Source of the DNA: Promethearchaeota archaeon
GTDB taxonomy: Archaea > Asgardarchaeota > Lokiarchaeia > Sigyniarchaeales > SOKP01
Reading direction: 5' to 3'
Assembly: GCA_048938895.1 (NCBI GenBank)
Contig: JBHLLU010000011.1
Coordinates: forward strand, 30,265 to 94,264
Length of the DNA: 64,000 nt
Positions 6,993 through 58,930 of the stretch are shown in pieces. The position numbers were made by a program, and so were the translations under genes. How positions within the stretch are numbered: position 1 is the stretch's first letter; the number at the start of each line of letters is the position of its first letter. The notes beneath the pieces are model-generated. The model was given only the letters and a program-made list of their open reading frames with translations. It was not told the DNA's origin and ran no database searches.

Positions 6993-8321
6993 CTAATTTT
7001 TAGCACCACACATCGGGCAATTACTAGTATTTTGGAGAGTTGCGCCACATATTTTACATAGAGTAATTGTTGCTGCTCCTCTTTTTCTTGGAGGATTAAG
7101 AGAAGTAATCGAGACAGAGGGTTGAGTTTCTATTTGTACTGGTTTGCTGATTTCCGTTGCAAGATTATCTTTTTTTAACTTAATTTCAATTTCTTTACCA
7201 AAAAATCCACCAACCTTTACCTTTTTTGTAGGTTCTATATAAGGAGTAGGAGGTTTTAATTGATCAATACTAATTTCTTCATCAATTTGTTCCATTTCTA
7301 CTGATGATTCTTCCTCAAATGGTTCTTGTGCTTCCTCAACCTCTATTTCTTCTGGTTCTGTGGGAATATCTTCTTCTGTTTCAAGTTCAGGATATTCTTC
7401 TTCTAATTCTTCTTCATATACCATATTTACAAATTCTTCATCTAATTTCAATAATGTTTCGCATTGAGGACATCGGTATATATGCTTAAATCCGATATTC
7501 TTAGCAAGTGAATACTTTGCAGCACAACAACTGTGAAATTTAGCACTACAATTAAAACACTTATGGATTTCATCTGAATGAGCTTCACAAATGGGACATA
7601 ATTCCTGTTCACAAATTGTACATATTTCTTCGTCATCTGGTGAAAGACTTATAAGATCGACAGCTAAACGTTCGTAGAAAACCTTATCTTCTATTAATAT
7701 ATTTTCTATTTCATCGGTTTTAAGCACTTTAAATTCCTTTTTATTTTGAATTAATGAACCTAGAATATTTTGCAGGAGTTTTTCATCCTGACAATAGAAC
7801 ATACCTCCATGTGTTTCACTCGAAATTACCTTTAATTTAACATCATCCTCATAGAATTTCTCGTTTCCAACTCGAATAATATCAATAAAGGCGGAAAATT
7901 TCTTTGCTTTAATCAATAAATCATATAGGGCATTATAGTAATCTTCAGCTAATTTACTTGGGGTATCAGAAATTATTATTACTCGATAATTTTTCCTTGC
8001 ATCTCTACTTTTTCTAAAGATATAGGCCAATATTTCATACAATCCATTTTCCAAATAACTTTGTTCTGTTTCTCTTGTTTCCCAAGAATTATTGATTGTA
8101 TTTAATACTGCTTCTGAATCTTTTATATCGTATTCATTTACGGGATTCTCATTTTTTTGAAAGATAACTACACCATAAGAGCTTAAAGCATTAAATTTAT
8201 CTTTTTCTTTAATAAATGCACCGATAGCTTTCATCAAAGACTTCTTTTTAAGAAAATCTGATATGATATCTATAAAAAAGATAAATTCCTCCGAATTAAT
8301 TGAATCCGAACTGGTTAGCAT
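6993..8321 (-). CDS. vWA-like domain protein with central PHD/RING-like C4HC3 Cys cluster and C-terminal zinc ribbon (paralog 1)
   Basis: The N-terminal ~190 aa has a Rpn10/p44-style vWA pattern (NYRVIIISDTPS, KKFSAFIDIIRVGNE). Cys cluster: C242-x2-C-x9-C-x2-C-x4-H-x2-C-x17-C-x2-C287. Followed by an acidic linker, a GGFFGK motif and a C-terminal CKICG...CPMCG. Confidence 0.6.
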   Translation of the reverse strand: MLTSSDSINSEEFIFFIDIISDFLKKKSLMKAIGAFIKEKDKFNALSSYGVVIFQKNENPVNEYDIKDSEAVLNTINNSWETRETEQSYLENGLYEILAYIFRKSRDARKNYRVIIISDTPSKLAEDYYNALYDLLIKAKKFSAFIDIIRVGNEKFYEDDVKLKVISSETHGGMFYCQDEKLLQNILGSLIQNKKEFKVLKTDEIENILIEDKVFYERLAVDLISLSPDDEEICTICEQELCPICEAHSDEIHKCFNCSAKFHSCCAAKYSLAKNIGFKHIYRCPQCETLLKLDEEFVNMVYEEELEEEYPELETEEDIPTEPEEIEVEEAQEPFEEESSVEMEQIDEEISIDQLKPPTPYIEPTKKVKVGGFFGKEIEIKLKKDNLATEISKPVQIETQPSVSITSLNPPRKRGAATITLCKICGATLQNTSNCPMCGAKN

Positions 8322-8474: not shown

Positions 8475-9848
8475 TTATATTATCCTAAAACCACAATTTG
8501 GACATTTAGTTTCTTGGTTGGGATTTATTTGTGTTCCACATTGCTGACAAATCAAAAAATTAGATTGAGATCTCGTTCTAGAAGACCTTGTATTATTGGA
8601 GGAATTTAAAGTTAGAGTTTTTTCTTTTAATTTAGTGGGATTTGCGTTATTGGATTTGAAAGTAGCTTTAGTAGATATCCTCTCATACACAATTTTATCA
8701 TTTACTTTTTTAACAGTATATACTTTTCCAAAGAATCCACCTATTCTAACTGTTTTAATTGTTTCTCCCTCTGCGTTTACATGGTTACTAAGGGATGTTG
8801 AATCTAATTTCTTAATTTCTCTTTGAATGGGAGGAGCTACAGTTTTTAGGGCTGGTTTTGCTTTTTCAAGTCTTTTAGGAATCTGTTCTAGTACTTCTTT
8901 TACCATGAATTCTTTTACTGTTGTCACTTCTACTTCACCAGATACTTCAATAATTTCATCCTCATCAATCTTAAGGAGTACATCACATTTTTTATTAGGG
9001 CAACGAAAAATGTTAGGGATTCCAATATTATGGTTTATAGTGTAATTTGTAATACAACAATTATGAAAACTAGTATTACAATCCTCACAAACTAAGGGAA
9101 TATCATCAACATTGGTACAAACTGGGCATAGCTCCTCATTACAGAAATAACATACCAACTTTTCCATAGTTGATTCTGATTTTAATAAGGGTTTCGCTAA
9201 ATAGTTATAAAAGGAATAATCTTCTTTACTTATCTGAATCCGATTAGGTTGATCAGTAAAAGTACTAGTAAATTGTTTAGTTTTTACTAATTTTTTTATT
9301 GTATCATTGAATTCTTTTTTCTCATGAATGTAAAATATCCCACCCTTGGTATCGCTTGCTAACATATTCAATTTTACGTCATCACTAAAAAATCTTGTAT
9401 CGCCCTCAGAAATTCTTAGAATATCGATAAAAGTAGGGAAATTCTTTATTTTTGAAACAAGATTAAATAATGCTTCTTGATAGTCTTCTGATAAATCAGA
9501 GGGTGTATCTGTTATAACTATAATTCGATTAAATTTTGACTTCTTTCTTACTGTTTCTGCGATATAAGAAAAGATATAGAATAGCCCATTTTCAAAGAAA
9601 CTTTGCTTCCTTGGTCGAAATCTCCAATTTTCTTCAATAGAATTTGCAATTATTCCCGCATCTTTCTTATCTGTAATAAATATTGGATTGCCTTCTTCTT
9701 GGAAAATGAGAATTGAATAATGTCCCTTTAAGTTAACTTTATTTTTTTCATCAATGTAATATTTAATAGCTTTTATTATCTCTTTTTTTTTAAGTAAGTC
9801 TTTTGTTAGATCCAAGTAGAAATAGACATCTTCTTTCATATTCTTCAC
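8475..9848 (-). CDS. vWA-like domain protein with central PHD/RING-like C4HC3 Cys cluster and C-terminal zinc ribbon (paralog 2)
   Basis: Collinear with 6993..8321 (NRIIVITDTPS, NFPTFIDILRISEG). Cys cluster: C241-x2-C-x9-C-x2-C-x4-H-x2-C-x17-C-x4-C288. Also has GGFFGK and a C-terminal CQQCG...CPNCG. Confidence 0.6.
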   Translation of the reverse strand: MKNMKEDVYFYLDLTKDLLKKKEIIKAIKYYIDEKNKVNLKGHYSILIFQEEGNPIFITDKKDAGIIANSIEENWRFRPRKQSFFENGLFYIFSYIAETVRKKSKFNRIIVITDTPSDLSEDYQEALFNLVSKIKNFPTFIDILRISEGDTRFFSDDVKLNMLASDTKGGIFYIHEKKEFNDTIKKLVKTKQFTSTFTDQPNRIQISKEDYSFYNYLAKPLLKSESTMEKLVCYFCNEELCPVCTNVDDIPLVCEDCNTSFHNCCITNYTINHNIGIPNIFRCPNKKCDVLLKIDEDEIIEVSGEVEVTTVKEFMVKEVLEQIPKRLEKAKPALKTVAPPIQREIKKLDSTSLSNHVNAEGETIKTVRIGGFFGKVYTVKKVNDKIVYERISTKATFKSNNANPTKLKEKTLTLNSSNNTRSSRTRSQSNFLICQQCGTQINPNQETKCPNCGFRII

Positions 9849-48858: not shown

Positions 48859-51063
48859 TTATAGAATTTTTTTCAATTCTAAGATCAAAGAATTTGGATT
48901 ATATTTATTAAACTTGTATATTTGTGCATTAGCATACTTTTTGAAATTTTTCTTAATTTGATCTGCTGAATAAGTATGAACCCCAAGAGCATGTGTTGCG
49001 TATGATTTTTTAGGTTCCAAGAGAACCATATGTATTTTTTGCTTTGACAATTTTTTGGTTAACTCTTTTAGTTCATTAGTGATTAAAGAATAATCTGTTT
49101 CAATTTGAGCTATTAAGTCAGGATACTTTACAGATATATTGGCTCCACAATCGCTAAATATAAAAACAATAGGGATAATATTTCTATCTTTTAGTTTTTC
49201 AACCCTAATAAGTTCTGATACTTTTTTTAGTGCTGCCGCCATAGGAGTATACGATTTTCCTTCAATTTTTTTCAATTTGTTAATAGCCAATTTAAAATTT
49301 ACAGTTGGTTTCTGTAATACAACTGCTTGTTTGCCTCGAAAAACAATCAATGCGATTTTATCTCTTTTTCTATATCCTTCGCGGTGTAGTGACAATATCA
49401 CGTCGGTCATTTGTTTAATTACATAATACATTGATGCTGAGCTGTCTAATACGAAAAAGAGAGCTAATGGCGCACGATACTCATAAATTTTATCCATTAA
49501 ATCATATTTATCAAAATGTATTGGGAAATCTATATTCGTCTCGTTATATGCTATATTTTTAAGATAATTTCTAATTGTTGCATCTAATGCGATACTTTTT
49601 GGATGTTCGTTTATTGGAGTTCTATATGAAACATACCTACCTTTTTGAGATGAAGATATTTTAATTCTCCTCCCAATTCCTCTCCCACCATAGTCAGAAA
49701 TCTTCCGATCCTTTCTAATATTATCTAGGATAGATGTCATTTTTTTCTCCATCTGATATATAAAAGGTAATGATATATTTTTTGCTTCAAAAAATTTTAA
49801 ATCATCATCAAAGGGAATATGTTTTACTTTCCAGCCCCCAGCAGGTTTAGGGTTCCTTTTTTTATCATCTGGGTATTTTGGTGGAGGAAGCTTCTGTTCT
49901 CTTGATTCTGGTATATCAACTTTATCAGGATCTACTGATTGTCGTTTAAATTCTTTTTGTTCACCATTATCATGTTTCAATGGACCTTCTGTTTCGCGGT
50001 TAGGTTGAAGAACATTGGTATCTTCATAGGCTTCTTTAATTTTTCCATAGACTTCAGCGATTTTCGACTGGATCTCTTCAGGAGTCATTTCATAATGTAG
50101 AGATTGAATTCTATGCTCGAAAACTAAATCCATCGCAATGTTTAAATCTTCTTCAGTTATATCTTTTCTCGCATTTAGTGCAGCATGAGCTCTCGCGCAT
50201 CTTATAAAGGTAATGTCTGCTCTTTGAGAGAATATCTCTAATTCGCTTACAATTTTTGATACAAATTCATAAATTGAATTGGGTATTTGTATATCCTTAA
50301 TTATTTTCCGAGCATTTAGAATTTGTTTTCTTAGAGTCTCTTGTTTATCCTCATATTGTTTTACAAATTCTTTTGGATTATCATCAAAATCTATTACTCT
50401 TCTAGTTATCTCAGCACGTAACTGATTGTCTCTTGGTGCTTTAATTCGAACCTCCAAACCAAGACGATCAGCAATTTGTGGTCTTAAATCTCCTTCTTCA
50501 GGATTCATACTTCCCACAAGAATGAATCTTGATGGATGTGATACAGAAATGCCCTCTCTCTCTATTATATTCACACCAGAAGCGGCAGAGTCTAAAAGAA
50601 CGTCAACAATATGATCCTGTAGTAAATTAATTTCATCCACATATAAAATACCTCTATTAGCTTTAGCTAATAATCCTGGATGCAGAGCTCTGATTCCTTC
50701 TGTGAGTACTTTATCAATGGATAATGACCCACAAACCATATCTTCTGTAACACCCAATGGTAAATTAACTAGCCACATATCTCTAAATTCATTTTCAACC
50801 TTATTTTTTTCCATTCTTTCTCTGCAAGTTTCACATAAATCATCTATATCTGAATTTGGATCACAGGAAAATTCACAGTTTTTAATAACTTCGATTTGGG
50901 GCATAAGTTCCACGAGACTTCGTACAGCAGTACTCTTTCCAGTTCCTTGATGGCCAGTCATCAAGATCCCTCCTATCAAAGGATCGATGAGATTTAGAAT
51001 TAAACCCATTTTCATCTTATCTTGTCCAAGAATTGCTGTGAAAGGAAAATTGAGTTTTCTCAT
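48859..51063 (-). CDS. ChlI/BchI-like AAA+ ATPase fused to ChlD-like vWA domain (MIDAS intact)
   Basis: N-terminal FPFTAILGQDKMKMGLILNLIDPLIGGILMTGHQGTGKSTAVRSL (ChlI signature with Walker A). Walker B ILYVDEINLL. Basic/proline-rich linker. C-terminal vWA with the DxSxS MIDAS motif FFVLDSSASM. Confidence 0.8.
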   Translation of the reverse strand: MRKLNFPFTAILGQDKMKMGLILNLIDPLIGGILMTGHQGTGKSTAVRSLVELMPQIEVIKNCEFSCDPNSDIDDLCETCRERMEKNKVENEFRDMWLVNLPLGVTEDMVCGSLSIDKVLTEGIRALHPGLLAKANRGILYVDEINLLQDHIVDVLLDSAASGVNIIEREGISVSHPSRFILVGSMNPEEGDLRPQIADRLGLEVRIKAPRDNQLRAEITRRVIDFDDNPKEFVKQYEDKQETLRKQILNARKIIKDIQIPNSIYEFVSKIVSELEIFSQRADITFIRCARAHAALNARKDITEEDLNIAMDLVFEHRIQSLHYEMTPEEIQSKIAEVYGKIKEAYEDTNVLQPNRETEGPLKHDNGEQKEFKRQSVDPDKVDIPESREQKLPPPKYPDDKKRNPKPAGGWKVKHIPFDDDLKFFEAKNISLPFIYQMEKKMTSILDNIRKDRKISDYGGRGIGRRIKISSSQKGRYVSYRTPINEHPKSIALDATIRNYLKNIAYNETNIDFPIHFDKYDLMDKIYEYRAPLALFFVLDSSASMYYVIKQMTDVILSLHREGYRKRDKIALIVFRGKQAVVLQKPTVNFKLAINKLKKIEGKSYTPMAAALKKVSELIRVEKLKDRNIIPIVFIFSDCGANISVKYPDLIAQIETDYSLITNELKELTKKLSKQKIHMVLLEPKKSYATHALGVHTYSADQIKKNFKKYANAQIYKFNKYNPNSLILELKKIL

Positions 51064-51198: not shown

Positions 51199-52155
51199 TT
51201 AAAACTTTTTAGATAACTCTTTTAACTTTTTGCCTAATCCTGCTGTGATATCTTCCCACTTGAGTAATATCTTTTCTACATGGGGAATAATTGTATCACG
51301 TTCTTTATATTCTAAATATTCAATGAATTCACTAATAAATCCTATTTTTTTATTTGTTTCTTCAACAAATCTATGAATTTCTTGGCTTTGGTTTTCTAAT
51401 ACATCCGGGATGCGATGTTTTTCACCACGTCGGGTTAACGTTGATAAATATTCTTCAGTTCCCAATAGTAAAGAATTTAATTCTTCAATTCTTTCATCTA
51501 CTATTTTTTCATATGTTTGAGGTACGTTATCTTTTGGAAGAAGATTAGTTGCATCAACAATGAATTTTTGAGTTAGACTTATTAATTGTTCCAAACTTTC
51601 ATACCCCTCAATTTTATAATCTACAGTATGATAAGATGCTTCAATTCCACTATTTACATTATCTAATCGAAATATTTTAAATCCAGGATCATTTTTCAAT
51701 TGAATATCTGGATCTCCTTTTTTATCAGCAAGCTCAATTTGTCTGATTAATCTTTGAGGATTAAAGACAAGGGAAATGGCTAAGTCGTTATTTTGTTGAT
51801 ATGATAAAGTAGTTTTAATATCAATATGAGACATCATAACTTTAAATCCAGGATGAGAATGCCACCAACCTACTACAAATTCAGGAGGATCTCTTGAAAA
51901 TGCTTCTTCATCGATTATATAAAGTGATTCATAGTCTTCATCTGACCATTTATATTGATCGATAACAGCATCTTTGTCTAATTTCTGGTGCATTATAGGA
52001 TATGCTGAAGAGATAATTACATCATTTCCTTCATTACGACCGGTAAATATGCCACTTACTTCAAGCCAATCATCTTTAGGAATTCGAGCATTAGCAAATC
52101 TTACTGATGCGGCTACAATTGTCAAATAGGCTTTTTTATTGATTAATACAGTCAT
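51199..52155 (-). CDS. MPN+/JAMM metalloprotease with C-terminal helical extension
   Basis: Complete JAMM motif: E32 (LEVSGIFTG) and HSHPGFKVMMSHID (H-x-H-x7-S-x2-D, nt 51820-51861). Paralogous to 53189..54685 (shared GW.HSHPG and GFKIFRL). Confidence 0.8.
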   Translation of the reverse strand: MTVLINKKAYLTIVAASVRFANARIPKDDWLEVSGIFTGRNEGNDVIISSAYPIMHQKLDKDAVIDQYKWSDEDYESLYIIDEEAFSRDPPEFVVGWWHSHPGFKVMMSHIDIKTTLSYQQNNDLAISLVFNPQRLIRQIELADKKGDPDIQLKNDPGFKIFRLDNVNSGIEASYHTVDYKIEGYESLEQLISLTQKFIVDATNLLPKDNVPQTYEKIVDERIEELNSLLLGTEEYLSTLTRRGEKHRIPDVLENQSQEIHRFVEETNKKIGFISEFIEYLEYKERDTIIPHVEKILLKWEDITAGLGKKLKELSKKF

Positions 52156-52408: not shown

Positions 52409-53053
52409 GTGACAGAAAGAGGATTCGAGCCACTTACCAGTCAACTAGGGGTACCAGGTACAAGTTATCGTATCCAATTGGGATTAATTAATGGTAAGTG
52501 GGCTTCTCGCTTGTTAAAGGGAAGAGATGTAATCGAATCGTATGTTTATAAAGATGAAGATGTTGAAGGGGGATTTCCAAATCAAAATTTAATCGTGGGA
52601 TGGGTTCTACGTACGGTAGCAATTCCCAATATAAATCCTCATCAGGTAATGAAAACAACACAAGCTTTAGTTAAGCAAGCAATTCAAAAGAAAGATGAAA
52701 GAAAAGTAGTAGCACCTATATCAGAAACTAGCTCTGTAGAATTGGAAAAGGTCCCACAAAGTGAATTAAAAAGACCTCAGGTTCAAGGTTGGGTTAAACA
52801 AGAGGGAGTAAAAAGTCAAGAGGAAATCGAAGAGGAAAGAAGACAAGCTTTTAAAGCCTCTGTCGCTGCTAGAAAAGAAGAAGAACACGCTGTAACCTTA
52901 AAGACAACCAGACAATTACCATCTATCCCAAAACAAGGAATGGTAGAAACAACACCGACAAGTTCAAAAGGATCAAGTTTTTGTCCGCATTGTGGAAAGG
53001 ATTTAGATTGGAAATTTTGTCCTTATTGCGGAAAACCATTACCACACGAATAA
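52409..53053 (+). CDS. Hypothetical protein with C-terminal double zinc ribbon
   Basis: C-terminal CPHCGKDLDWKFCPYCGKPL, with a charged central linker. The GTG start comes from the track and the true start is uncertain (an in-frame TTG lies at 52511). No family recognised for the N-terminal domain. Confidence 0.45.
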   Translation: MTERGFEPLTSQLGVPGTSYRIQLGLINGKWASRLLKGRDVIESYVYKDEDVEGGFPNQNLIVGWVLRTVAIPNINPHQVMKTTQALVKQAIQKKDERKVVAPISETSSVELEKVPQSELKRPQVQGWVKQEGVKSQEEIEEERRQAFKASVAARKEEEHAVTLKTTRQLPSIPKQGMVETTPTSSKGSSFCPHCGKDLDWKFCPYCGKPLPHE

Positions 53054-53188
53054 TAAATTACTCTAATTATCCTATCAATTTATCCTATCAGAATTATAAA
53101 TAGAACTTTTTAAATTAAATACTTTTTATTCAAATATTTAAAATCATACAATCTATATATATATCATAAATTTGAAAAAACTAGTGAA

Positions 53189-54685
53189 TTGAAAATGGGG
53201 AAAACAAGCGATCAAAGTACAGTTACAATAAAACCTCTTGCTTATTACAAAATGTTACTCCATGTTTTGCGTTTTGGTTCTAAATTTATCGAGCACACTA
53301 AATTATCTGAGGTTATGGGAGTTCTAATTGGGCGCCTTGAAGGAGAAGGCGAAATAAAAGATGTAATTATCGAAGATGTAGTACCTGTTTCTCATGGAGG
53401 GACGATAGAAGTTAAATTCTCAGTTGAACAATTAGGTGCATTTGGAGAACTAGACACAAAAATATGGGAACAATATGGTGATCTTGGTTGGTTTTCTGTG
53501 GGGTGGTACCATTCCCATCCAGGATTAGGTATATTTTTTAGTGAAACTGACAAATATAATCAAATTTTTTGGCAAAAAAATCCAAGTGGTATAGGAATCG
53601 TATTCGATCACACCTATCTTGATAAGCCGGGTGAACTTGGGTTTAGAGCATTTAGATTAAGTGAAACTAGACTAGAAGATCCTTCATTAGCTTTAAAATC
53701 AGATTATCATGAGGTAAAAGCTTTGGTTGAACCTCCCGATAGCCTTGAATTTTACATTAAAATAATGGAATTAATCAATAATGTTCATACAAGTGGTCCC
53801 CAAATTCTCGAGTTAAACGAAACCATCGATATATTTGGTGGTGTGTTTATTCCTGAAGAAGAACAAATAGAATCGAAATTACCAGAAATCAATTATGATG
53901 AAATGATTTCAACTTTGAAAGAAGGAATGAACAAATTCCTTGAGTCATCAGTTAAGCCATTTGTTTATCTTCTAAAAACTTGGGGTCAAGACCTTGTCAA
54001 TAAAATATATATTAATAATTCAGGCATGCGGAATGATTTAAAAGAAATTAGAGATAAGTTGAGTAAACAAATCATAAGTCTACAGCAATCTTTTAACTAT
54101 GATTTGCAAAATGACATGAAAGATTTAGATTTCTATGTAGATGATAAACTCGAAGAGTTAGATAATGAAAAGGAGAACATCACAGAATTAGTCCTCAATT
54201 CAAAAACAGAATTCACAATTCAAGTTGACACTTCACTTAAAGATGAAATTTTTAGCCATATTTTAACAAGGCTTGGAGATTTATCAAATAGCATTTTAGA
54301 TTTTAACAATAATCTCTCAAATAATCTGTCGAATCTTAGGGAAAGTAGTTCTGAAATAAAGAGTTATACAGAAAAATATAGATCTATAGATATGTTGATT
54401 CAAAGAAATTTAAATACCTTACAGGAAGATTTAGCAACATCTTTCAATAAAAAATTAAGTAAAATTAGAGGAAATTTAAATAATCTTTATAAAGACACAA
54501 AAAATTATCTATCAGATTTAAAAGCAGCAATTATATTATTAGAAAGCTCAAAAAGTCCTATAAAGAATAAAATAACTGCTTTGCAGAATGAAAATAAAGA
54601 CTTGCAGAAAACAGTAAAGGAACTTAGAGTAGAAAATCAAGAATTATTAAGTAAAATCAAAAAATTAGAAAAAGGAGGAGAGTAG
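53189..54685 (+). CDS. MPN+/JAMM metalloprotease with ~300-aa C-terminal coiled-coil region
   Basis: E (SEVMGVLIGR) plus HSHPGLGIFFSETD (nt 53510-53551). The C-terminal two thirds are heptad-rich and N/K/E/L-rich. The likely real start is the ATG at 53195. Confidence 0.8.
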   Translation: MKMGKTSDQSTVTIKPLAYYKMLLHVLRFGSKFIEHTKLSEVMGVLIGRLEGEGEIKDVIIEDVVPVSHGGTIEVKFSVEQLGAFGELDTKIWEQYGDLGWFSVGWYHSHPGLGIFFSETDKYNQIFWQKNPSGIGIVFDHTYLDKPGELGFRAFRLSETRLEDPSLALKSDYHEVKALVEPPDSLEFYIKIMELINNVHTSGPQILELNETIDIFGGVFIPEEEQIESKLPEINYDEMISTLKEGMNKFLESSVKPFVYLLKTWGQDLVNKIYINNSGMRNDLKEIRDKLSKQIISLQQSFNYDLQNDMKDLDFYVDDKLEELDNEKENITELVLNSKTEFTIQVDTSLKDEIFSHILTRLGDLSNSILDFNNNLSNNLSNLRESSSEIKSYTEKYRSIDMLIQRNLNTLQEDLATSFNKKLSKIRGNLNNLYKDTKNYLSDLKAAIILLESSKSPIKNKITALQNENKDLQKTVKELRVENQELLSKIKKLEKGGE

Positions 54686-54691
54686 AAAAAA

Positions 54692-56059
54692 TTGACACCA
54701 AAGGAAAATAATCAAGAAAGTAGTGTTTATAAGATCATAATAAAATCAGATGCATTTATTCGGATGATGACTCATGTGTTAAGGTTTGGAAATGAAGCAT
54801 TAGATGAGAGTGTAGAAGTAATGGGTGTTTGTATAGGTGAAGTTGATGAAGGTAACAAATTAGTCAACTTAATCAATATTATTCCTATACAACACGGAAT
54901 TCACGTTTCAACAGGTTTTACTAAAGAAGATATTGAGTTGTTTGCGAACTTAGAAAAAGAATATCAAGAGAAAGAAATGAATATAATCGGTTGGTATCTC
55001 TCACGACCTGGTTGGGGTCTTGATTTTACTGAAATTACAATCCAAAACCATAAGTTTTTCCAAAATGATAAATATCCTTTAGGTTTTGTGATTGTCTTCG
55101 ATCATAGTCTTATGGGTAAAGAGGGAGAATTTGGATTTAAGATTTTTTCTTTGAAAAATTATAAGAAATCCGATGAATATCTTGAAATGCCATATGAATT
55201 AGAGATTCCTGCTAAATTAGACTTTTTTAAATGGGTAAAAAAATTTATGGAAGATTCTCAACGGTTATCTCCAATAATGATTAAAGAATTTAAGGAACAA
55301 TCTTCAAGAGAACTTCAAGAAATACCTTCTTCAACCGAGGATTTAATAGAAGAAAGCATTAAAGACTATTCAGAGCAAGTGGATCAAGTAATATTAGGGT
55401 TTAATAATGGTTTTGAGAAAATTAAGGAAGCATTAGGTCAAACATATAAATCTCAATTTGACTCATGGATTGGTGGGGTAACTCAAGGATCTCTAACGGG
55501 AATGGATCATATTAGCAAATCATTGAATCAATTGAAAAATACACTTTCTGATGGTCTTAGTGATGTAAAAAAATATTTCAATAATACATTTGAAGAAATA
55601 TCTGGTCTTTTTAAAAAGAATATTACTGAATACATCGATAAGCGAGTCAATGATCAGAAAGAATTACGAAACGAAATTTCCAATATTTTGAAATCAACAA
55701 TTGAAGAATCAAAACTAAAAATTGAGGATCAGATTAAAAATAAGGTGAATCCTCTAGATAAAAAAATACAAGAAATATTGACAACTTTAGAACAGAGCTT
55801 AAATATGAATGCTGATTTGAATACTTCGATAATAGAATTAAGCAATCTCGCTTCAGATCGAGATAATGACATAAAAAATCTTACAAAAAACATAAATGAA
55901 CATCTGGAAAAAATTGCGACTCCTTTTAAACAACAAATTGATAGCAAATTTGAAGAACTTGATGCAGAATTAAAACCAGTTAAAGATAGTTATTCAGAAG
56001 TTAGAATATTGCTTGAAAAACTACAAAAAACTATTACAGAATTTAGAAATTTAACCTAA
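54692..56059 (+). CDS. MPN- (catalytically degenerate MPN) paralog with ~300-aa C-terminal coiled-coil region
   Basis: Aligns with the upstream gene (HVLRFG, EVMGVCIG, GWY, VFDH, GEFGFKIFSL), but the JAMM motif reads LSRPGWGLDFTEIT (nt 54998-55039): both His, the Ser and the Asp are replaced. The TTG start lies 6 nt after the upstream stop, with GGAGGAG upstream. Confidence 0.7.
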   Translation: MTPKENNQESSVYKIIIKSDAFIRMMTHVLRFGNEALDESVEVMGVCIGEVDEGNKLVNLINIIPIQHGIHVSTGFTKEDIELFANLEKEYQEKEMNIIGWYLSRPGWGLDFTEITIQNHKFFQNDKYPLGFVIVFDHSLMGKEGEFGFKIFSLKNYKKSDEYLEMPYELEIPAKLDFFKWVKKFMEDSQRLSPIMIKEFKEQSSRELQEIPSSTEDLIEESIKDYSEQVDQVILGFNNGFEKIKEALGQTYKSQFDSWIGGVTQGSLTGMDHISKSLNQLKNTLSDGLSDVKKYFNNTFEEISGLFKKNITEYIDKRVNDQKELRNEISNILKSTIEESKLKIEDQIKNKVNPLDKKIQEILTTLEQSLNMNADLNTSIIELSNLASDRDNDIKNLTKNINEHLEKIATPFKQQIDSKFEELDAELKPVKDSYSEVRILLEKLQKTITEFRNLT

Positions 56060-56065
56060 TTTTTA

Positions 56066-56365
56066 CTAATAAAATTGTAAACTTGAAACTTTTGAAATTT
56101 GAAGTTTATATTTTGGGATATTTGTACCAAGCCTTTTTAATTGATTTAATTTAGCTACATGACTAAGAATTCTCCCAATTTTATCAACTTTAATATCAAT
56201 CCCGAAGGATTCTTTCAGAACAGAGCTTATTTTATAAGAGGATAAAATCACAACACGTGAAATATTTTTTTCACAAAGTAATTCAATAGCTTTTCTAACC
56301 AAGTTAATTAGATTTTCTTTATTTTCGATTTGAGTTTTTTTCATGCTTACGAAAAAAATATTCAA
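56066..56365 (-). CDS. Hypothetical small protein
   Basis: A 99-aa ORF convergent with the MPN- gene. Has a possible HTH-like segment (KIGRILSHVAKLNQLKRLG). No family recognised. Confidence 0.35.
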   Translation of the reverse strand: MNIFFVSMKKTQIENKENLINLVRKAIELLCEKNISRVVILSSYKISSVLKESFGIDIKVDKIGRILSHVAKLNQLKRLGTNIPKYKLQISKVSSLQFY

Positions 56366-56521: not shown

Positions 56522-58930
56522 ATGTCTGACGAGCAACCTTATTCTTCAAAAAAGTCAAAACCTAGTAAAAACAGGATTAAACAAAAAGTTCAAGGTTTCA
56601 CCTCTAAACAAAGAACTAAATTATATAGAATATCATCAAAAGTAAGAAATCAATTGTCTTCTTTTTATTCAGATAAAATTATTCATCAGGAAGTATATAT
56701 AGATGGGAAAATACCAAAGTCATATTCTTTCCAGAAAAAATTTTATGGATTATATGCAATATTTATTGTCTATTCCCTATTATTAATTGTAGCAATTAAT
56801 TTGCAGGAGAAAACATGGGTTAACATACTCATGTTTGGCAATCCCTTTGTTTTTTCAAACACTATAGTGGCCTTTTTTTTGGTACTTTCATTTATTTTCA
56901 GTGTAGATAAAATAAGAATCTTCTTTTTTGAAAAAAAATCAGCTATTAAACAAGTTATCTTATATTTTGTATTAATTTTAGTGTTATTTATAGTATTATT
57001 GTATTTGTACTACTCCATACATCTCAATTTTATGACGTATCTGTTAACTTTAGCAATGATTTGGTTATTACTTTTAAGCAGTCGATTCTATATCTATTCA
57101 AGAAAATTCTCAACAAAAATCGAAGCAAGATTTATAAAAAAATATTCAATTCCAAGATACTTACTTGCGATTATTATCCCATTTATTATACTAGGGATCT
57201 TAGTCGTGATATCATTATTTTATCGGAGTCTTTTAGTATTTATATCATTAGATATTTTTGGAAAGGTTGACCCGACAAGTGCAGTAAGAGTTTATAATTT
57301 AGAAATGAGGGTAATTATGCCTCTAATTTATTTCAGTCTAGTAATGACACTTGTCTTTATCATCTTCGAATTTGTACTTACTAGAAGACGAGCAGAAACG
57401 AAGAGAGCAGGGACATTTGATAACTTCACTTTTTCTTTAATTGTTCTTTTTATTTTCTTTTTTCAAATTTTTCAAATTAGTGTTTTCATGTTTCTTCAGG
57501 AAGATACCGTTACTGCATTAAAAGCAACGATTGGGGCAACAGGTTCAGCAACATCTTATATTTTCTTATTGGAATTTATTGTATCTATGTATTTCTTATA
57601 TCGAATTGTTAAGAAAACAGGAGGTACATTAGGATGGCGTATACTTTTTTTTAAAAAAGATGGTTTAATCTTATTATGCCTAGCCTGTGTTCTTGCCCAG
57701 ACTTTATCTCGCTTCGCGCTATCATATGAAGTTCAGAATCAAGCTTTAAGTGATGTAGGTGTAGTGCTTATGGCAGATAAATATATTATTTCTGTTCTCA
57801 TGATTTTTTTCTTGGGGAGTACAATATTAGTCTATTATTTAAAACCTCATGAAACCTCCATGTTTATGAGATTACAAAAAGAAACAGTTGGTGAAATAGA
57901 AAAAAATATGGATAAAATTTACAATATTATTAGGAGTGAATATATAAGAAGAGGTGAAGCTTATCCCCTCGAAATCATTGAAAGAGAGCTCATCAAAGCA
58001 ACTCAATTATCACTAGGAAATGTCTACAATCTTTTGGAACAACTAGCGAGAAAAGATATGGATGTATTAATCACTGAGGAAAAACAAGATTTGGGAAAAC
58101 CCATAAAAATGATTAATTTTGTCTCGGTTACTGAACGTTTTGAGAAGAAAGGGATTGCGAAGAAAAAAGCAAGAAGATATCTGAGCGAGAGATTATTAGA
58201 AACGGCATTAGAAAAAGATAGAAAAACTAGTAGATTAAAAAGTGTGCCTGAAACTGGTGAAGCAACTAACAGTTTTATCTCTTCATTATCAACAAATTAT
58301 GGTAAGAAACAAAAAGATGAAGTTTTACGTAAGGAAAAACTAAAAGAGACAGAAATTTCATTTAGTTCTGTTACAGAAGATTTGAAATATCAAATTATTC
58401 AAATAATAAAAAAAGAGTACATATATAGAATGGAAAATCCAGAAAAGACTCCTGATTTCTATATACCTATATCTGAAATTGCTAATGAAATTGAATTAGC
58501 TACAAAAATAACACCTGGAGAATTATATCTTATTTTAGAAGAATTTAATAAAACCGATTTAGAAATTTCTTTAGTAGAAAATCCGGATGAGCCTGAAGAT
58601 AAAAAGATAAAGATACTACCCTTTACTGATGATAACATGAACTATTCATTAGCCAATTTTAGACCAAAAGAATATACTAATTTCAGAATTATAGTCACCA
58701 AATTTTTTCTTAAAAACTTAAAAGCAAAAAGAGAAAAAAGAGTTCTATTCCAAATTAAAAGACAAATTCCTGATAATACTGAATCTCAAAGGTCTTGGGT
58801 TGTTTTAATGGATACTTTATATAAATATTATCCATTATATTCAGAGCAGTTGAAAAGAAGTCCAGATGCTCCCAAAATGAGGAAACTTATTGATAATATT
58901 ATCAAAGTTTTCGAAAAGAAACAATCCTGA
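56522..58930 (+). CDS. Large polytopic membrane protein with C-terminal cytoplasmic tandem winged-helix-like repeats
   Basis: K/S-rich N-terminus and about 10 hydrophobic helices (aa ~75-440). The soluble C-terminus has two similar modules: IYNIIRSEYIRRGEAYPLEIIERELIKATQLSLGNVYNLLEQL and IIQIIKKEYIYRMEN...IPISEIANEIELATKITPGELYLILEEF. Confidence 0.55.
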   Translation: MSDEQPYSSKKSKPSKNRIKQKVQGFTSKQRTKLYRISSKVRNQLSSFYSDKIIHQEVYIDGKIPKSYSFQKKFYGLYAIFIVYSLLLIVAINLQEKTWVNILMFGNPFVFSNTIVAFFLVLSFIFSVDKIRIFFFEKKSAIKQVILYFVLILVLFIVLLYLYYSIHLNFMTYLLTLAMIWLLLLSSRFYIYSRKFSTKIEARFIKKYSIPRYLLAIIIPFIILGILVVISLFYRSLLVFISLDIFGKVDPTSAVRVYNLEMRVIMPLIYFSLVMTLVFIIFEFVLTRRRAETKRAGTFDNFTFSLIVLFIFFFQIFQISVFMFLQEDTVTALKATIGATGSATSYIFLLEFIVSMYFLYRIVKKTGGTLGWRILFFKKDGLILLCLACVLAQTLSRFALSYEVQNQALSDVGVVLMADKYIISVLMIFFLGSTILVYYLKPHETSMFMRLQKETVGEIEKNMDKIYNIIRSEYIRRGEAYPLEIIERELIKATQLSLGNVYNLLEQLARKDMDVLITEEKQDLGKPIKMINFVSVTERFEKKGIAKKKARRYLSERLLETALEKDRKTSRLKSVPETGEATNSFISSLSTNYGKKQKDEVLRKEKLKETEISFSSVTEDLKYQIIQIIKKEYIYRMENPEKTPDFYIPISEIANEIELATKITPGELYLILEEFNKTDLEISLVENPDEPEDKKIKILPFTDDNMNYSLANFRPKEYTNFRIIVTKFFLKNLKAKREKRVLFQIKRQIPDNTESQRSWVVLMDTLYKYYPLYSEQLKRSPDAPKMRKLIDNIIKVFEKKQS

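Follow-up and report, generated by a model that had tools for sequence, protein, structure and literature searches.

A conserved tandem of stalked MPN-domain genes in Lokiarchaeota and the lineage-specific loss of the JAMM motif in its second member

Genes A and B and their catalytic sites

A 64,000-nucleotide stretch of DNA from a Promethearchaeota archaeon (assembly GCA_048938895.1, contig JBHLLU010000011.1, positions 30,265 to 94,264; hereafter the window) carries two adjacent plus-strand genes, A and B, each encoding an MPN domain followed by a long helical stalk. Promethearchaeota is, in the NCBI taxonomy, the phylum containing the class Promethearchaeia, formerly Lokiarchaeia. Gene A (53195..54685, 496 residues; Pfam JAB, 5.7e-11) is of the MPN+ type, with a JAMM motif. 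Its open reading frame (ORF) opens with a TTG at 53189, and the likely start is the ATG at 53195 because the orthologs begin with MGK; the stop codon is a TAG (54683-54685). Gene B (54692..56059, 455 residues; Pfam JAB, 3.9e-12), which is of the MPN- type in this genome, starts with a TTG 6 nucleotides past the A stop codon (spacer, 54686-54691). At locus L005, the ortholog of B has an ATG at the position of this TTG (labels such as L005 and L126 denote loci from the genome scans described below). The Shine-Dalgarno-like sequence for B, GGAGGAG (54674..54680, plus strand), lies within the last codons of A, where it encodes ..GGE. An earlier sequence-only reading of this DNA had noted two same-strand genes 6 nucleotides apart with GGAGGAG before the second start, and both the coordinates and the sequence agree with it. 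The TATATATATAT stretch (53154..53164, plus strand), 31-41 nucleotides before the ATG of A, is a candidate archaeal TATA box for a possible A-B transcript.

Is this tandem common in Lokiarchaeota? I performed a census of pairs by two scans with one genome per GTDB species, followed by an ORF-by-ORF BLAST. Adjacent A and B genes were found at 106 loci, representing 85 distinct pairs, in Lokiarchaeota. The pair is conserved in relatives and no one-off, a point that the sequence-only reading had put up for checking. The homologs retrieved were only Asgard proteins from metagenome-assembled genomes (MAGs), the majority labelled Promethearchaeota, and their public annotations are 'hypothetical', 'MPN domain-containing' or 'proteasome lid subunit RPN8/RPN11'. 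The intergenic DNA between A and B was examined for 65 of the 85 pairs. The short spacer recurs in these junctions, and a GGAGG-like stretch lies 5-12 nucleotides before the B start in most of them. The stop codon of A is TAA in 46 junctions, TGA in 12 and TAG in 7. A and B lie in the same frame in the window and in 42 of the 65 pairs. An A-B fusion by stop-codon read-through was considered and rejected; since B usually has a ribosome-binding site and its own start codon, the shared frame is better taken as inherited spacing than as recoding.

The MPN domain of A (residues 9-199; 53219..53791, plus strand) was delimited with an AlphaFold2 (AF2) model, Foldseek and a profile comparison with the PDB; the AF2 monomer models of A and B were built with 74-76 orthologs. 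For A, Foldseek placed BRCC36 on top (1e-9; chains from the BRISC and BRCA1-A complexes), then Rpn11 (TM-score TMt 0.62-0.69) and CSN5, the E-values over these three families ranging from 1e-9 to 1e-7. The MPN domain of B (residues 14-190; 54731..55261, plus strand), assigned by Foldseek and profile, was modelled at a predicted local distance difference test score (pLDDT) of about 85, and its Foldseek matches were Rpn11 (1.7e-11, TMt 0.70), then CSN5, BRCC36 and CsRpn11, the Rpn11 homolog of Caldiarchaeum subterraneum. Both proteins have the MPN fold according to Pfam JAB (PF01398) and Foldseek. They differ in the JAMM zinc and catalytic motif (E...H-x-H-x7-S-x2-D). As read from the sequence, A has H106-S-H108-x7-S116-x2-D119 (HSHPGLGIFFSETD; 53510..53551, plus strand) together with the general-base Glu E39 (53309-53311, plus strand). 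At the homologous position, B has L103-S-R105-PGWGLD111F-T113-E-I-T116 (LSRPGWGLDFTEIT; 54998..55039, plus strand). Both His, the Ser and the Asp are replaced, by L103, R105, T113 and T116 (L103-S-R105-x7-T113-x2-T116), and the Glu is retained (E42, 54815-54817). The B of the window is an MPN fold that lacks the metal ligands. The earlier claims that the first gene carries the full motif, that the second lacks both His as well as the Ser and Asp, and that the pair is MPN+/MPN- in composition all hold for this genome.

A and B align with each other over their full lengths, including the tails (BLASTP, E = 7e-31, 26% identity), which is far beyond chance; the two genes are clearly paralogous, as had been proposed. 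Single-sequence searches with A and B matched CSN5, Rpn11, BRCC36 and the Caldiarchaeum Rpn11 homolog. Against the PDB, the A-family profile matched CsRpn11 (2e-12), DrBRCC36 (2e-10), Rpn11 (6e-10) and AMSH (about 1e-5), and the B-family profile matched Rpn11 (7e-11), CSN5 (4e-10) and DrBRCC36 (8e-10). Rpn8 matched the B-family profile at 8e-3 only and was absent among the best 60 matches listed for the A-family profile, and CSN6 and Abraxas sequences were absent among the matches listed for both profiles. A joint tree built from 67 pairs separates A and B into two reciprocally monophyletic clades whose topologies largely agree. Judged from these sequence comparisons, A and B are the products of one duplication within Lokiarchaeota, the pair is specific to Lokiarchaeota, and B is derived from an active MPN+ protein of the eukaryote type. 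Since A and B resemble the catalytic Rpn11, CSN5 and BRCC36 and not Rpn8 or CSN6, B is no ortholog of the eukaryotic MPN- subunits; neither the profile matches nor the position of B as the sister of A indicated common descent with a eukaryotic MPN- family. The sequence-only reading had suggested an archaeal counterpart of the eukaryotic active/pseudo-enzyme deubiquitinase pair. The MPN+/MPN- state found here supports the likeness, but descent has to be given up, because the duplication occurred independently in Lokiarchaeota. The comparison with Rpn11/Rpn8, CSN5/CSN6, BRCC36/Abraxas and AMSH that it had put forward went the same way, with Rpn11, CSN5, BRCC36 and CsRpn11 at 1e-10 to 1e-12 and Rpn8 at 8e-3 for B. 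The genome scans also revealed single-copy MPN+ proteins with the same type of tail in other archaea (L125, L126, L128 and L130). Two bacterial candidates for the same architecture were rejected: a Vulcanimicrobiota hit is an MPN+ protein with a transmembrane segment and an unrelated C-terminus, and Planctomycete hits are ordinary JAB-E1 neighbours.

Is the inactive state a fixed property of the B family? The JAMM motif of A was readable in 81 of the 85 pairs and keeps the H, H, S and D residues in all 81, a few having a 3-residue insertion. For B, all four residues are kept in 41 of the 85 orthologs, three in 7, two in 20 and none in 17. The degraded forms (44/85) are placed in at least five separate clades of the tree: IHND; CHTD/CHDD/CNAH; SHSA and LHSG; SHSE/IHSE/SHSS; and two separate [ILTN]RTT clades. 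Loss of catalytic residues is confined to B and never affects A. As far as the alignments tell, the MPN- state is lineage-specific and does not define the B family. Since 41 of the 85 B orthologs keep the whole motif, the ancestral pair was MPN+/MPN+.

The fully dead B site reads SRPGWGL[DE]FT[DE]IT with little variation. An Arg at the second-His position is accompanied by an Asp or Glu two residues before the former Ser (position 111) in 103 of 103 sequences, and a His at the second-His position by an aromatic residue at position 111 in 76 of 80. The SRPGWGLDFT[DE]IT cassette is common to two non-sister clades (including the B orthologs in L015, L016, L017, L035 and L054). Residues 96-125 of the second clade are 78% identical to the window clade and 49% identical to their own MPN+ sisters, and all other segments of this clade are nearer to the sister clade. 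The fully dead form of B looks like the outcome of selection, not of random decay. The sharing of the cassette could be due to short-tract recombination or to convergence, between which third-codon positions are uninformative. An Arg-Asp bridge (R105/D111) may have taken the place of the zinc site in B.

Helical stalks and the proposed pairing of A and B

The MPN domain and the stalk are joined by a conserved linker in both proteins. The linker of A (residues 200-233; 53792..53893, plus strand) has a P-x-ILE[LI]NE...F..[IV]..P motif with invariant E206, N208, E209 and P220, and its pLDDT falls below 50 at residues 201-220 in the monomer model. The linker of B (residues 191-227; 55262..55372, plus strand), defined by alignment, has a P-[IV]-[LM]-I-K-E...LQEIP motif, in which I197, L208, I211 and P212 are invariant and P194, K198, E199 and Q209 are nearly so; it is disordered in the monomer model, with a pLDDT below 50 at residues 204-230. 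Linkers that are conserved yet poorly modelled are typical of segments folding on a partner, and these two may be such segments. The stalk of A (53894..54673, plus strand) consists of AF2 helices at residues 234-242, 249-348 and 351-493 and is mostly hendecad. It contains an invariant DLKAAIILLESSKxPI sequence, followed by a heptad zipper-like end (about 54560-54673) that is absent from B; A is longer than B by about 40 residues. The stalk of B (55373..56053, plus strand) consists of a helix at residues 228-248 and a continuous helix at residues 253-454 (pLDDT of 84-92 over 310-450) with a hendecad a/d/e/h core and a conserved C-terminal LLEKLQKxITxFRNL sequence. The mean pLDDT of the models is 74-75.

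The stalks are roughly 200-250 residues in length, the whole tail of B being about 265 residues. When averaged over each family, hydrophobicity repeats every 3.64-3.68 residues through most of the A and B tails, and up to every 3.70 in B, which corresponds to a hendecad repeat. Heptad-like stretches are found at A348-417 and B340-409, which are homologous positions, and in the last ~70 residues of A. Changes of the period coincide at homologous positions of the two tails. A clean hendecad a/d/e/h core, with a narrow hydrophobic stripe, is seen at B256-339. The tails are 31-34% hydrophobic and 31% charged, with no Cys and 2-3 Pro. Thus, the tails of about 300 residues described earlier as heptad-rich and low in Cys are indeed long and free of Cys, but they are mostly hendecad, and that of B falls short of 300 residues. 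A tail-only search of 1.84 billion representative proteins gave 43 matches, all of them B-family-sized or fragments. The idea that the tails are low-complexity filler was rejected on account of these few matches and of the long continuous AF2 helices. According to the models, the tails are real, family-specific single long helices, mostly of the hendecad type, and both the AF2 helices and the periodicity provide the long helix with a regular hydrophobic core repeat that is expected of a two-stranded coiled coil.

It was assessed how closely A and B have diverged together. For the 32 loci with all eight cluster genes, r between the A and B distance matrices is 0.93, and the partial correlation once two neighbouring genes are regressed out is 0.83. 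The other pairs in the cluster reach at most 0.39, so that A and B co-evolve much more tightly than their neighbours do. The mean p-distance is 0.43 for A, 0.53 for B and 0.15-0.38 for the neighbours; both genes evolve faster than these, and B faster than A. On balance, I lean slightly towards the reading that A and B form a Lokiarchaeota-specific, translationally coupled MPN heterodimer with a coiled-coil stalk, in which A would be the isopeptidase, with B serving as a scaffold or regulator and having turned into a pseudo-enzyme in certain lineages, that of the window among them. Support for the pairing is indirect and comes from the conserved coupling, the one-sided loss of catalytic residues and the co-variation of the two genes. 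Both subunits would be translated from a single bicistronic message. A would act as a zinc-dependent JAMM isopeptidase, most probably on conjugates or precursors of the Asgard ubiquitin-like system, and B would be a paralogous partner with a conserved structural or regulatory job. The two would pair via their MPN domains and via a parallel, mostly hendecad coiled-coil stalk of ~200 residues (roughly 30 nm). One active site per dimer would be enough, which would have allowed the repeated loss of catalytic residues in B; in the lineage of the window, the zinc site of B would have been swapped for the conserved SRPGWGLDFT[DE]IT cassette. The extra C-terminal heptad zipper of A could link two A-B dimers. 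The path would lead from a single-copy, presumably homodimeric stalked MPN+ protein through duplication to a heterodimer and then to a dead partner. Physical heterodimerisation, the pairing of the stalks and the substrate are what I infer, as is all else beyond the sequence patterns.

Several points weigh against the heterodimer. The complete JAMM motif is present in B in about half of the species, and these intact B orthologs may be enzymes in their own right. The predicted template modelling score (pTM) of the AF2 monomers is only 0.41-0.44. The tails resemble apolipoprotein-type 11-mer amphipathic helices, the profile of B matching ApoA-IV at 1.6e-8 and that of A at 5e-7. Neither the window nor the flanking DNA of the Lokiarchaeota loci gave a match to ubiquitin, E1 or E2, and a named or cultured Lokiarchaeon is in neither genome scan's list. 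The co-variation of A and B and the matching periodicity of their stalks could partly reflect the shared ancestry and constraints of paralogs; therefore, the co-variation is taken as support and not as proof.

A rather unlikely alternative is that A and B are co-expressed but unpaired, each forming its own homo-oligomeric stalked MPN protein, the B of the window being non-catalytic, for example a receptor or decoy for a ubiquitin-like protein. It gains from the single-copy MPN+ homologs with long tails in other archaea (L125, L126 and L128), from the crystallisation of CsRpn11 as a homodimer (Fuchs 2018) and from the 41 of 85 intact B orthologs. The strong conservation of the degenerate B site would likewise be expected for a new function. 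However, independent homo-oligomers leave unexplained the tight, conserved coupling of the two genes and a rate co-variation far above that of the other neighbour pairs, and the repeated loss of catalysis in B but never in A is the pattern expected of one joint enzyme.

The resemblance of the tails to apolipoproteins raises another alternative, in which they are apolipoprotein- or perilipin-like amphipathic 11-mer helices that form no coiled coil and lie on a membrane or lipid surface, keeping the MPN heads there. I consider this quite unlikely. The period of 3.64-3.68, the ApoA-IV matches given above together with PDB profile matches to ApoA-I, a Pfam Apolipoprotein match at 1.3e-6, weak matches of the phasin, PspA, YtxH and GvpQ types, and the conservation of a multi-pass membrane protein of 802 residues next to the pair all fit it. 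However, the exchangeable apolipoprotein family (PF01442) scored 28.7 bits, far under its cut-off of 90 bits. The 2-3 Pro of each tail are without the regular punctuation of that family, the hydrophobic a/d/e/h stripe is narrow (31-34% hydrophobic residues), and AF2 gives one unbroken 200-residue helix with a pLDDT of 84-92. The tails match the coiled coils of ZorA and of methyl-accepting chemotaxis proteins (MCPs) as well. All of these weak matches, to ApoA-I/A-IV, MCP, ZorA and designed bundles, are below the family thresholds and stem from the 11-mer amphipathic repeat.

Neighbouring genes and gene C

The pair stands in a conserved gene order: an ATP-grasp gene (minus strand), a ChlD-like AAA+/vWA gene (minus), a third MPN gene, C (minus), a Zn-ribbon gene (plus), A (plus), B (plus), a 99-residue ORF (minus) and an 802-residue membrane protein gene (plus). 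This order is kept even where B is only ~30% identical to the B of the window. Unrelated flanking genes (MFS and PALP) often keep their order too; therefore, only A-B is taken as the candidate unit, and the Zn-ribbon gene, gene C and the 99-residue ORF belong to it more weakly.

The Zn-ribbon protein (52409..53053, plus strand, 214 residues), directly upstream of A, matches only zinc ribbons in Pfam. Its N-terminal domain of ~95 residues (GFxPLTSQLGVPGTSYRIQLG...NINPHQVMKTTQALVKQA) shows conservation of 80% or more among Lokiarchaeota and has no family match in Pfam or NCBIfam, and the family is restricted to Lokiarchaeota MAGs. At L001:5216-6449, A is separated from the Zn-ribbon gene by two extra ORFs, of which one encodes a short JAB protein of 196 residues. 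Two of the distant stalked MPN+ genes, at L125:1451-2797 (minus strand; Bathyarchaeota label) and L128:541-1716 (minus strand; Sigynarchaeum label), each have a gene for a Zn-ribbon + Roadblock/LC7 protein close upstream on the opposite strand. A relationship between these neighbours and the Zn-ribbon protein of the window was rejected, since no similarity was found. Downstream of the pair, the 99-residue protein (56066..56365, minus strand) is convergent with B, with 6 nucleotides between the stop codons, and the 802-residue protein (56522-58930, plus strand) is predicted to cross the membrane many times and has a C-terminal half that is soluble; both are conserved and have no family match. 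The six window proteins A, B, C, Zn-ribbon, 99-residue and 802-residue gave no Pfam match to PCI (PF01399).

Is there any link to ubiquitin? A neighbourhood of ubiquitin, E1, E2 and RING genes was not found for A-B in the window or at the Lokiarchaeota loci, and a setting of this type occurs solely at the distant locus L126 (318-5082, uncultured archaeon). A single-copy MPN+ gene there, encoding 516 residues with the same type of tail, lies between an E2 gene (UQ_con, 2e-27) and an E1 gene (ThiF, 2e-40). Next comes the gene of a vWA protein, whose RING-finger match is weak and under the Pfam threshold, and an Arf-family GTPase gene is nearby. The best guess for the family is an isopeptidase role in a ubiquitin-like system, because of the fold resembling Rpn11, CSN5 and BRCC36 and the E1/E2 setting of L126. 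In the window, two tandem genes ~45 kb from the pair (6993-8321 and 8475-9848, both on the minus strand) encode proteins ~23% identical to the vWA protein of L126 (tblastn, 6e-10 and 1e-7).

The gene order allows a different assignment, in which the MPN proteins are unconnected with ubiquitin-like tagging and serve the ChlD-like AAA+/vWA and ATP-grasp proteins, for example by removing a peptide or amino-acid tag or by regulation. ATP-grasp enzymes form amide bonds of a type that peptidases can reverse, and the order from the ATP-grasp gene to B is conserved even at the low B identity mentioned above. The fused ChlI/ChlD-type AAA+ and vWA gene (48859-51063, minus strand) always adjoins gene C. 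However, its product looks like a housekeeping subunit of the cobaltochelatase type; the best NCBIfam match is 'putative cobaltochelatase' (TIGR02442, 1e-175, below the curated cut-off), and the protein is 71-94% identical across related genomes. The synteny may be simple vertical inheritance, as MFS and PALP often share it, and in some genomes the ATP-grasp gene is separated from the ChlD gene by an SDR gene. Moreover, A, B and C are closest to ubiquitin/Nedd8 isopeptidases, and a distant homolog sits in an E1/E2 operon. Service to the chelatase-like proteins is thus improbable. A mobile anti-virus defence or conflict module using JAB peptidases is hardly credible: such systems often contain JAB, AAA+ and vWA domains and PADLOC gave weak matches (generic JAB for C, the ZorA/LmuB coiled coil for the tails), but there was no specific PADLOC match, the cluster keeps its chromosomal setting across about 85 species, its trees agree with those of the neighbouring genes, and no integrase or other mobility gene was seen adjoining the cluster.

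Gene C (51199..52155, minus strand; WWHSHPGFKVMMSHID), which was missing from the sequence-only reading, encodes a third MPN+ paralog of 318 residues (Pfam JAB, 2e-12; BLASTP against A, 4e-16). Its JAMM motif is intact and its helical tail is about 130 residues long. The gene is divergent to the Zn-ribbon, A and B genes, and the protein matches CSN5 best in the PDB (1e-8). No tRNA was found in the intergenic region between C and the Zn-ribbon gene. Gene C lies beside the pair in nearly all related genomes, and its functional link to the pair is uncertain.

In 14 of 73 related Lokiarchaeota loci, gene C is split within the JAMM motif by a stop-carrying insert of 30-32 nucleotides (L005:7070-7154, L010:7063-7147, L015:6942-7025 and L043:7018-7102, all on the minus strand, and 10 more loci). 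The insert sits exactly between ...WWHSHPGF and KVMMSHID; the gene C of the window is uninterrupted, and the orthologous site is at about 51828-51845. The insert and its flanks can be folded into a helix, a 3-nucleotide bulge, a 4-bp helix, a second 3-nucleotide bulge and a stem-loop. In this structure, 85% of the cells are paired, a value reached by 0 of 500 shuffles (slid controls, 20-55%), and six pairs have changed on both sides in a compensatory manner. A cut after the second nucleotide of each bulge would give G-F-K-V-M-M in frame. The insert thus resembles a mini-intron of the bulge-helix-bulge type. A comparable intron in a protein-coding gene is that of crenarchaeal cbf5 (PMC2738675).

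Comparison with known MPN systems

The closest analogy for A-B is probably BRCC36 with Abraxas or KIAA0157 (ABRO1), of the BRCA1-A and BRISC complexes, where an MPN+ enzyme is joined by a paralog-like MPN- pseudo-enzyme. BRCC36 and Abraxas/KIAA0157 both continue into C-terminal helices, which are paired in the eukaryotic complex. BRCC36 is the top Foldseek match of A, with ~300 columns aligned including the helix after the MPN domain, and DrBRCC36 is the best PDB match of B by sequence. The differences are as clear. There is no orthology, as B groups with A inside Lokiarchaeota and has no Abraxas-family match among those listed. The stalk of BRCC36 is far shorter, those of A and B being hendecad and 200-245 residues long. 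Half of the species retain an MPN+ B, and the partners BRE and MERIT40 of the BRCC36 complex were not identified here. Pairs of the MPN+/MPN- type are well documented in eukaryotes: BRCC36 requires an MPN- partner for activity according to one report (PMC4579573), and Rpn11 is described as working with Rpn8.

Rpn11-Rpn8, CSN5-CSN6 and eIF3h-eIF3f resemble A-B as duplicated MPN+/MPN- (or MPN-/MPN-) paralogs with one catalytic site per dimer and with helices C-terminal to the MPN domain. Rpn11 and CSN5 are matched by A, B and C in sequence, and by A and B also in fold. In contrast to these PCI-MPN complexes, the A-B duplication is independent and lineage-specific, B matches Rpn11 at 7e-11 but Rpn8 at 8e-3 only, and the PCI partners of such complexes have no match in the six window proteins scanned. 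CsRpn11, from the ubiquitin operon of Caldiarchaeum subterraneum, is an archaeal JAMM protein of the eukaryote type and the best profile match of the A family (2e-12). The protein forms dimers and carries helices at its C-terminus (Fuchs 2018), and its operon is comparable to the E2/E1 operon of L126 with the vWA protein (weak RING match). However, CsRpn11 is single-copy, homodimeric and about 200 residues long, and it belongs to a ubiquitin operon, whereas A and B are duplicated, stalked proteins of 455-496 residues encoded away from ubiquitin, E1 and E2. The tail of ZorA, the shafts of MCPs and the exchangeable apolipoproteins share with the A/B tails an 11-residue periodicity, very long unbroken helices and weak profile matches, but these matches are sub-threshold, and the tail family of A and B occurs only on these MPN proteins.

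It was speculated, as an unlikely extension, that the Lokiarchaeal pair is an independently evolved MPN+/MPN- heterodimer with a ~30-nm stalk of which all evolutionary stages survive, namely the single-copy stalked MPN+ protein, the MPN+/MPN+ pair, the pair with a partly decayed partner and the pair with a dead partner carrying a selected Arg-Asp 'pseudo-site' cassette. Together with C, the Zn-ribbon protein, the 99-residue protein and the membrane protein, it would constitute a tethered ubiquitin-editing machine, functionally like BRISC or the proteasome lid.

Active/dead MPN heterodimers such as Rpn11-Rpn8, CSN5-CSN6 and BRCC36-Abraxas are treated as a eukaryotic invention. A full-text search of a limited literature collection turned up no account of an MPN+/MPN- pair from archaea, or of such stalked proteins, and a structural study of an archaeal Rpn11 (PMC6043591) states that archaea are not known to have the active/dead heterodimer organisation. 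If A and B pair, Asgard archaea would have reached the eukaryotic type of solution by an independent duplication. The ~85 species would then form a natural series from MPN+/MPN+ to MPN+/MPN-, in which the turning of a catalytic subunit into a pseudo-enzyme scaffold could be tested directly, and a branch of the archaeal ubiquitin toolkit would gain an unusual stalked architecture. The pair is limited to Lokiarchaeota and did not give rise to the eukaryotic ones, and its bearing on eukaryogenesis is by analogy, not by descent.

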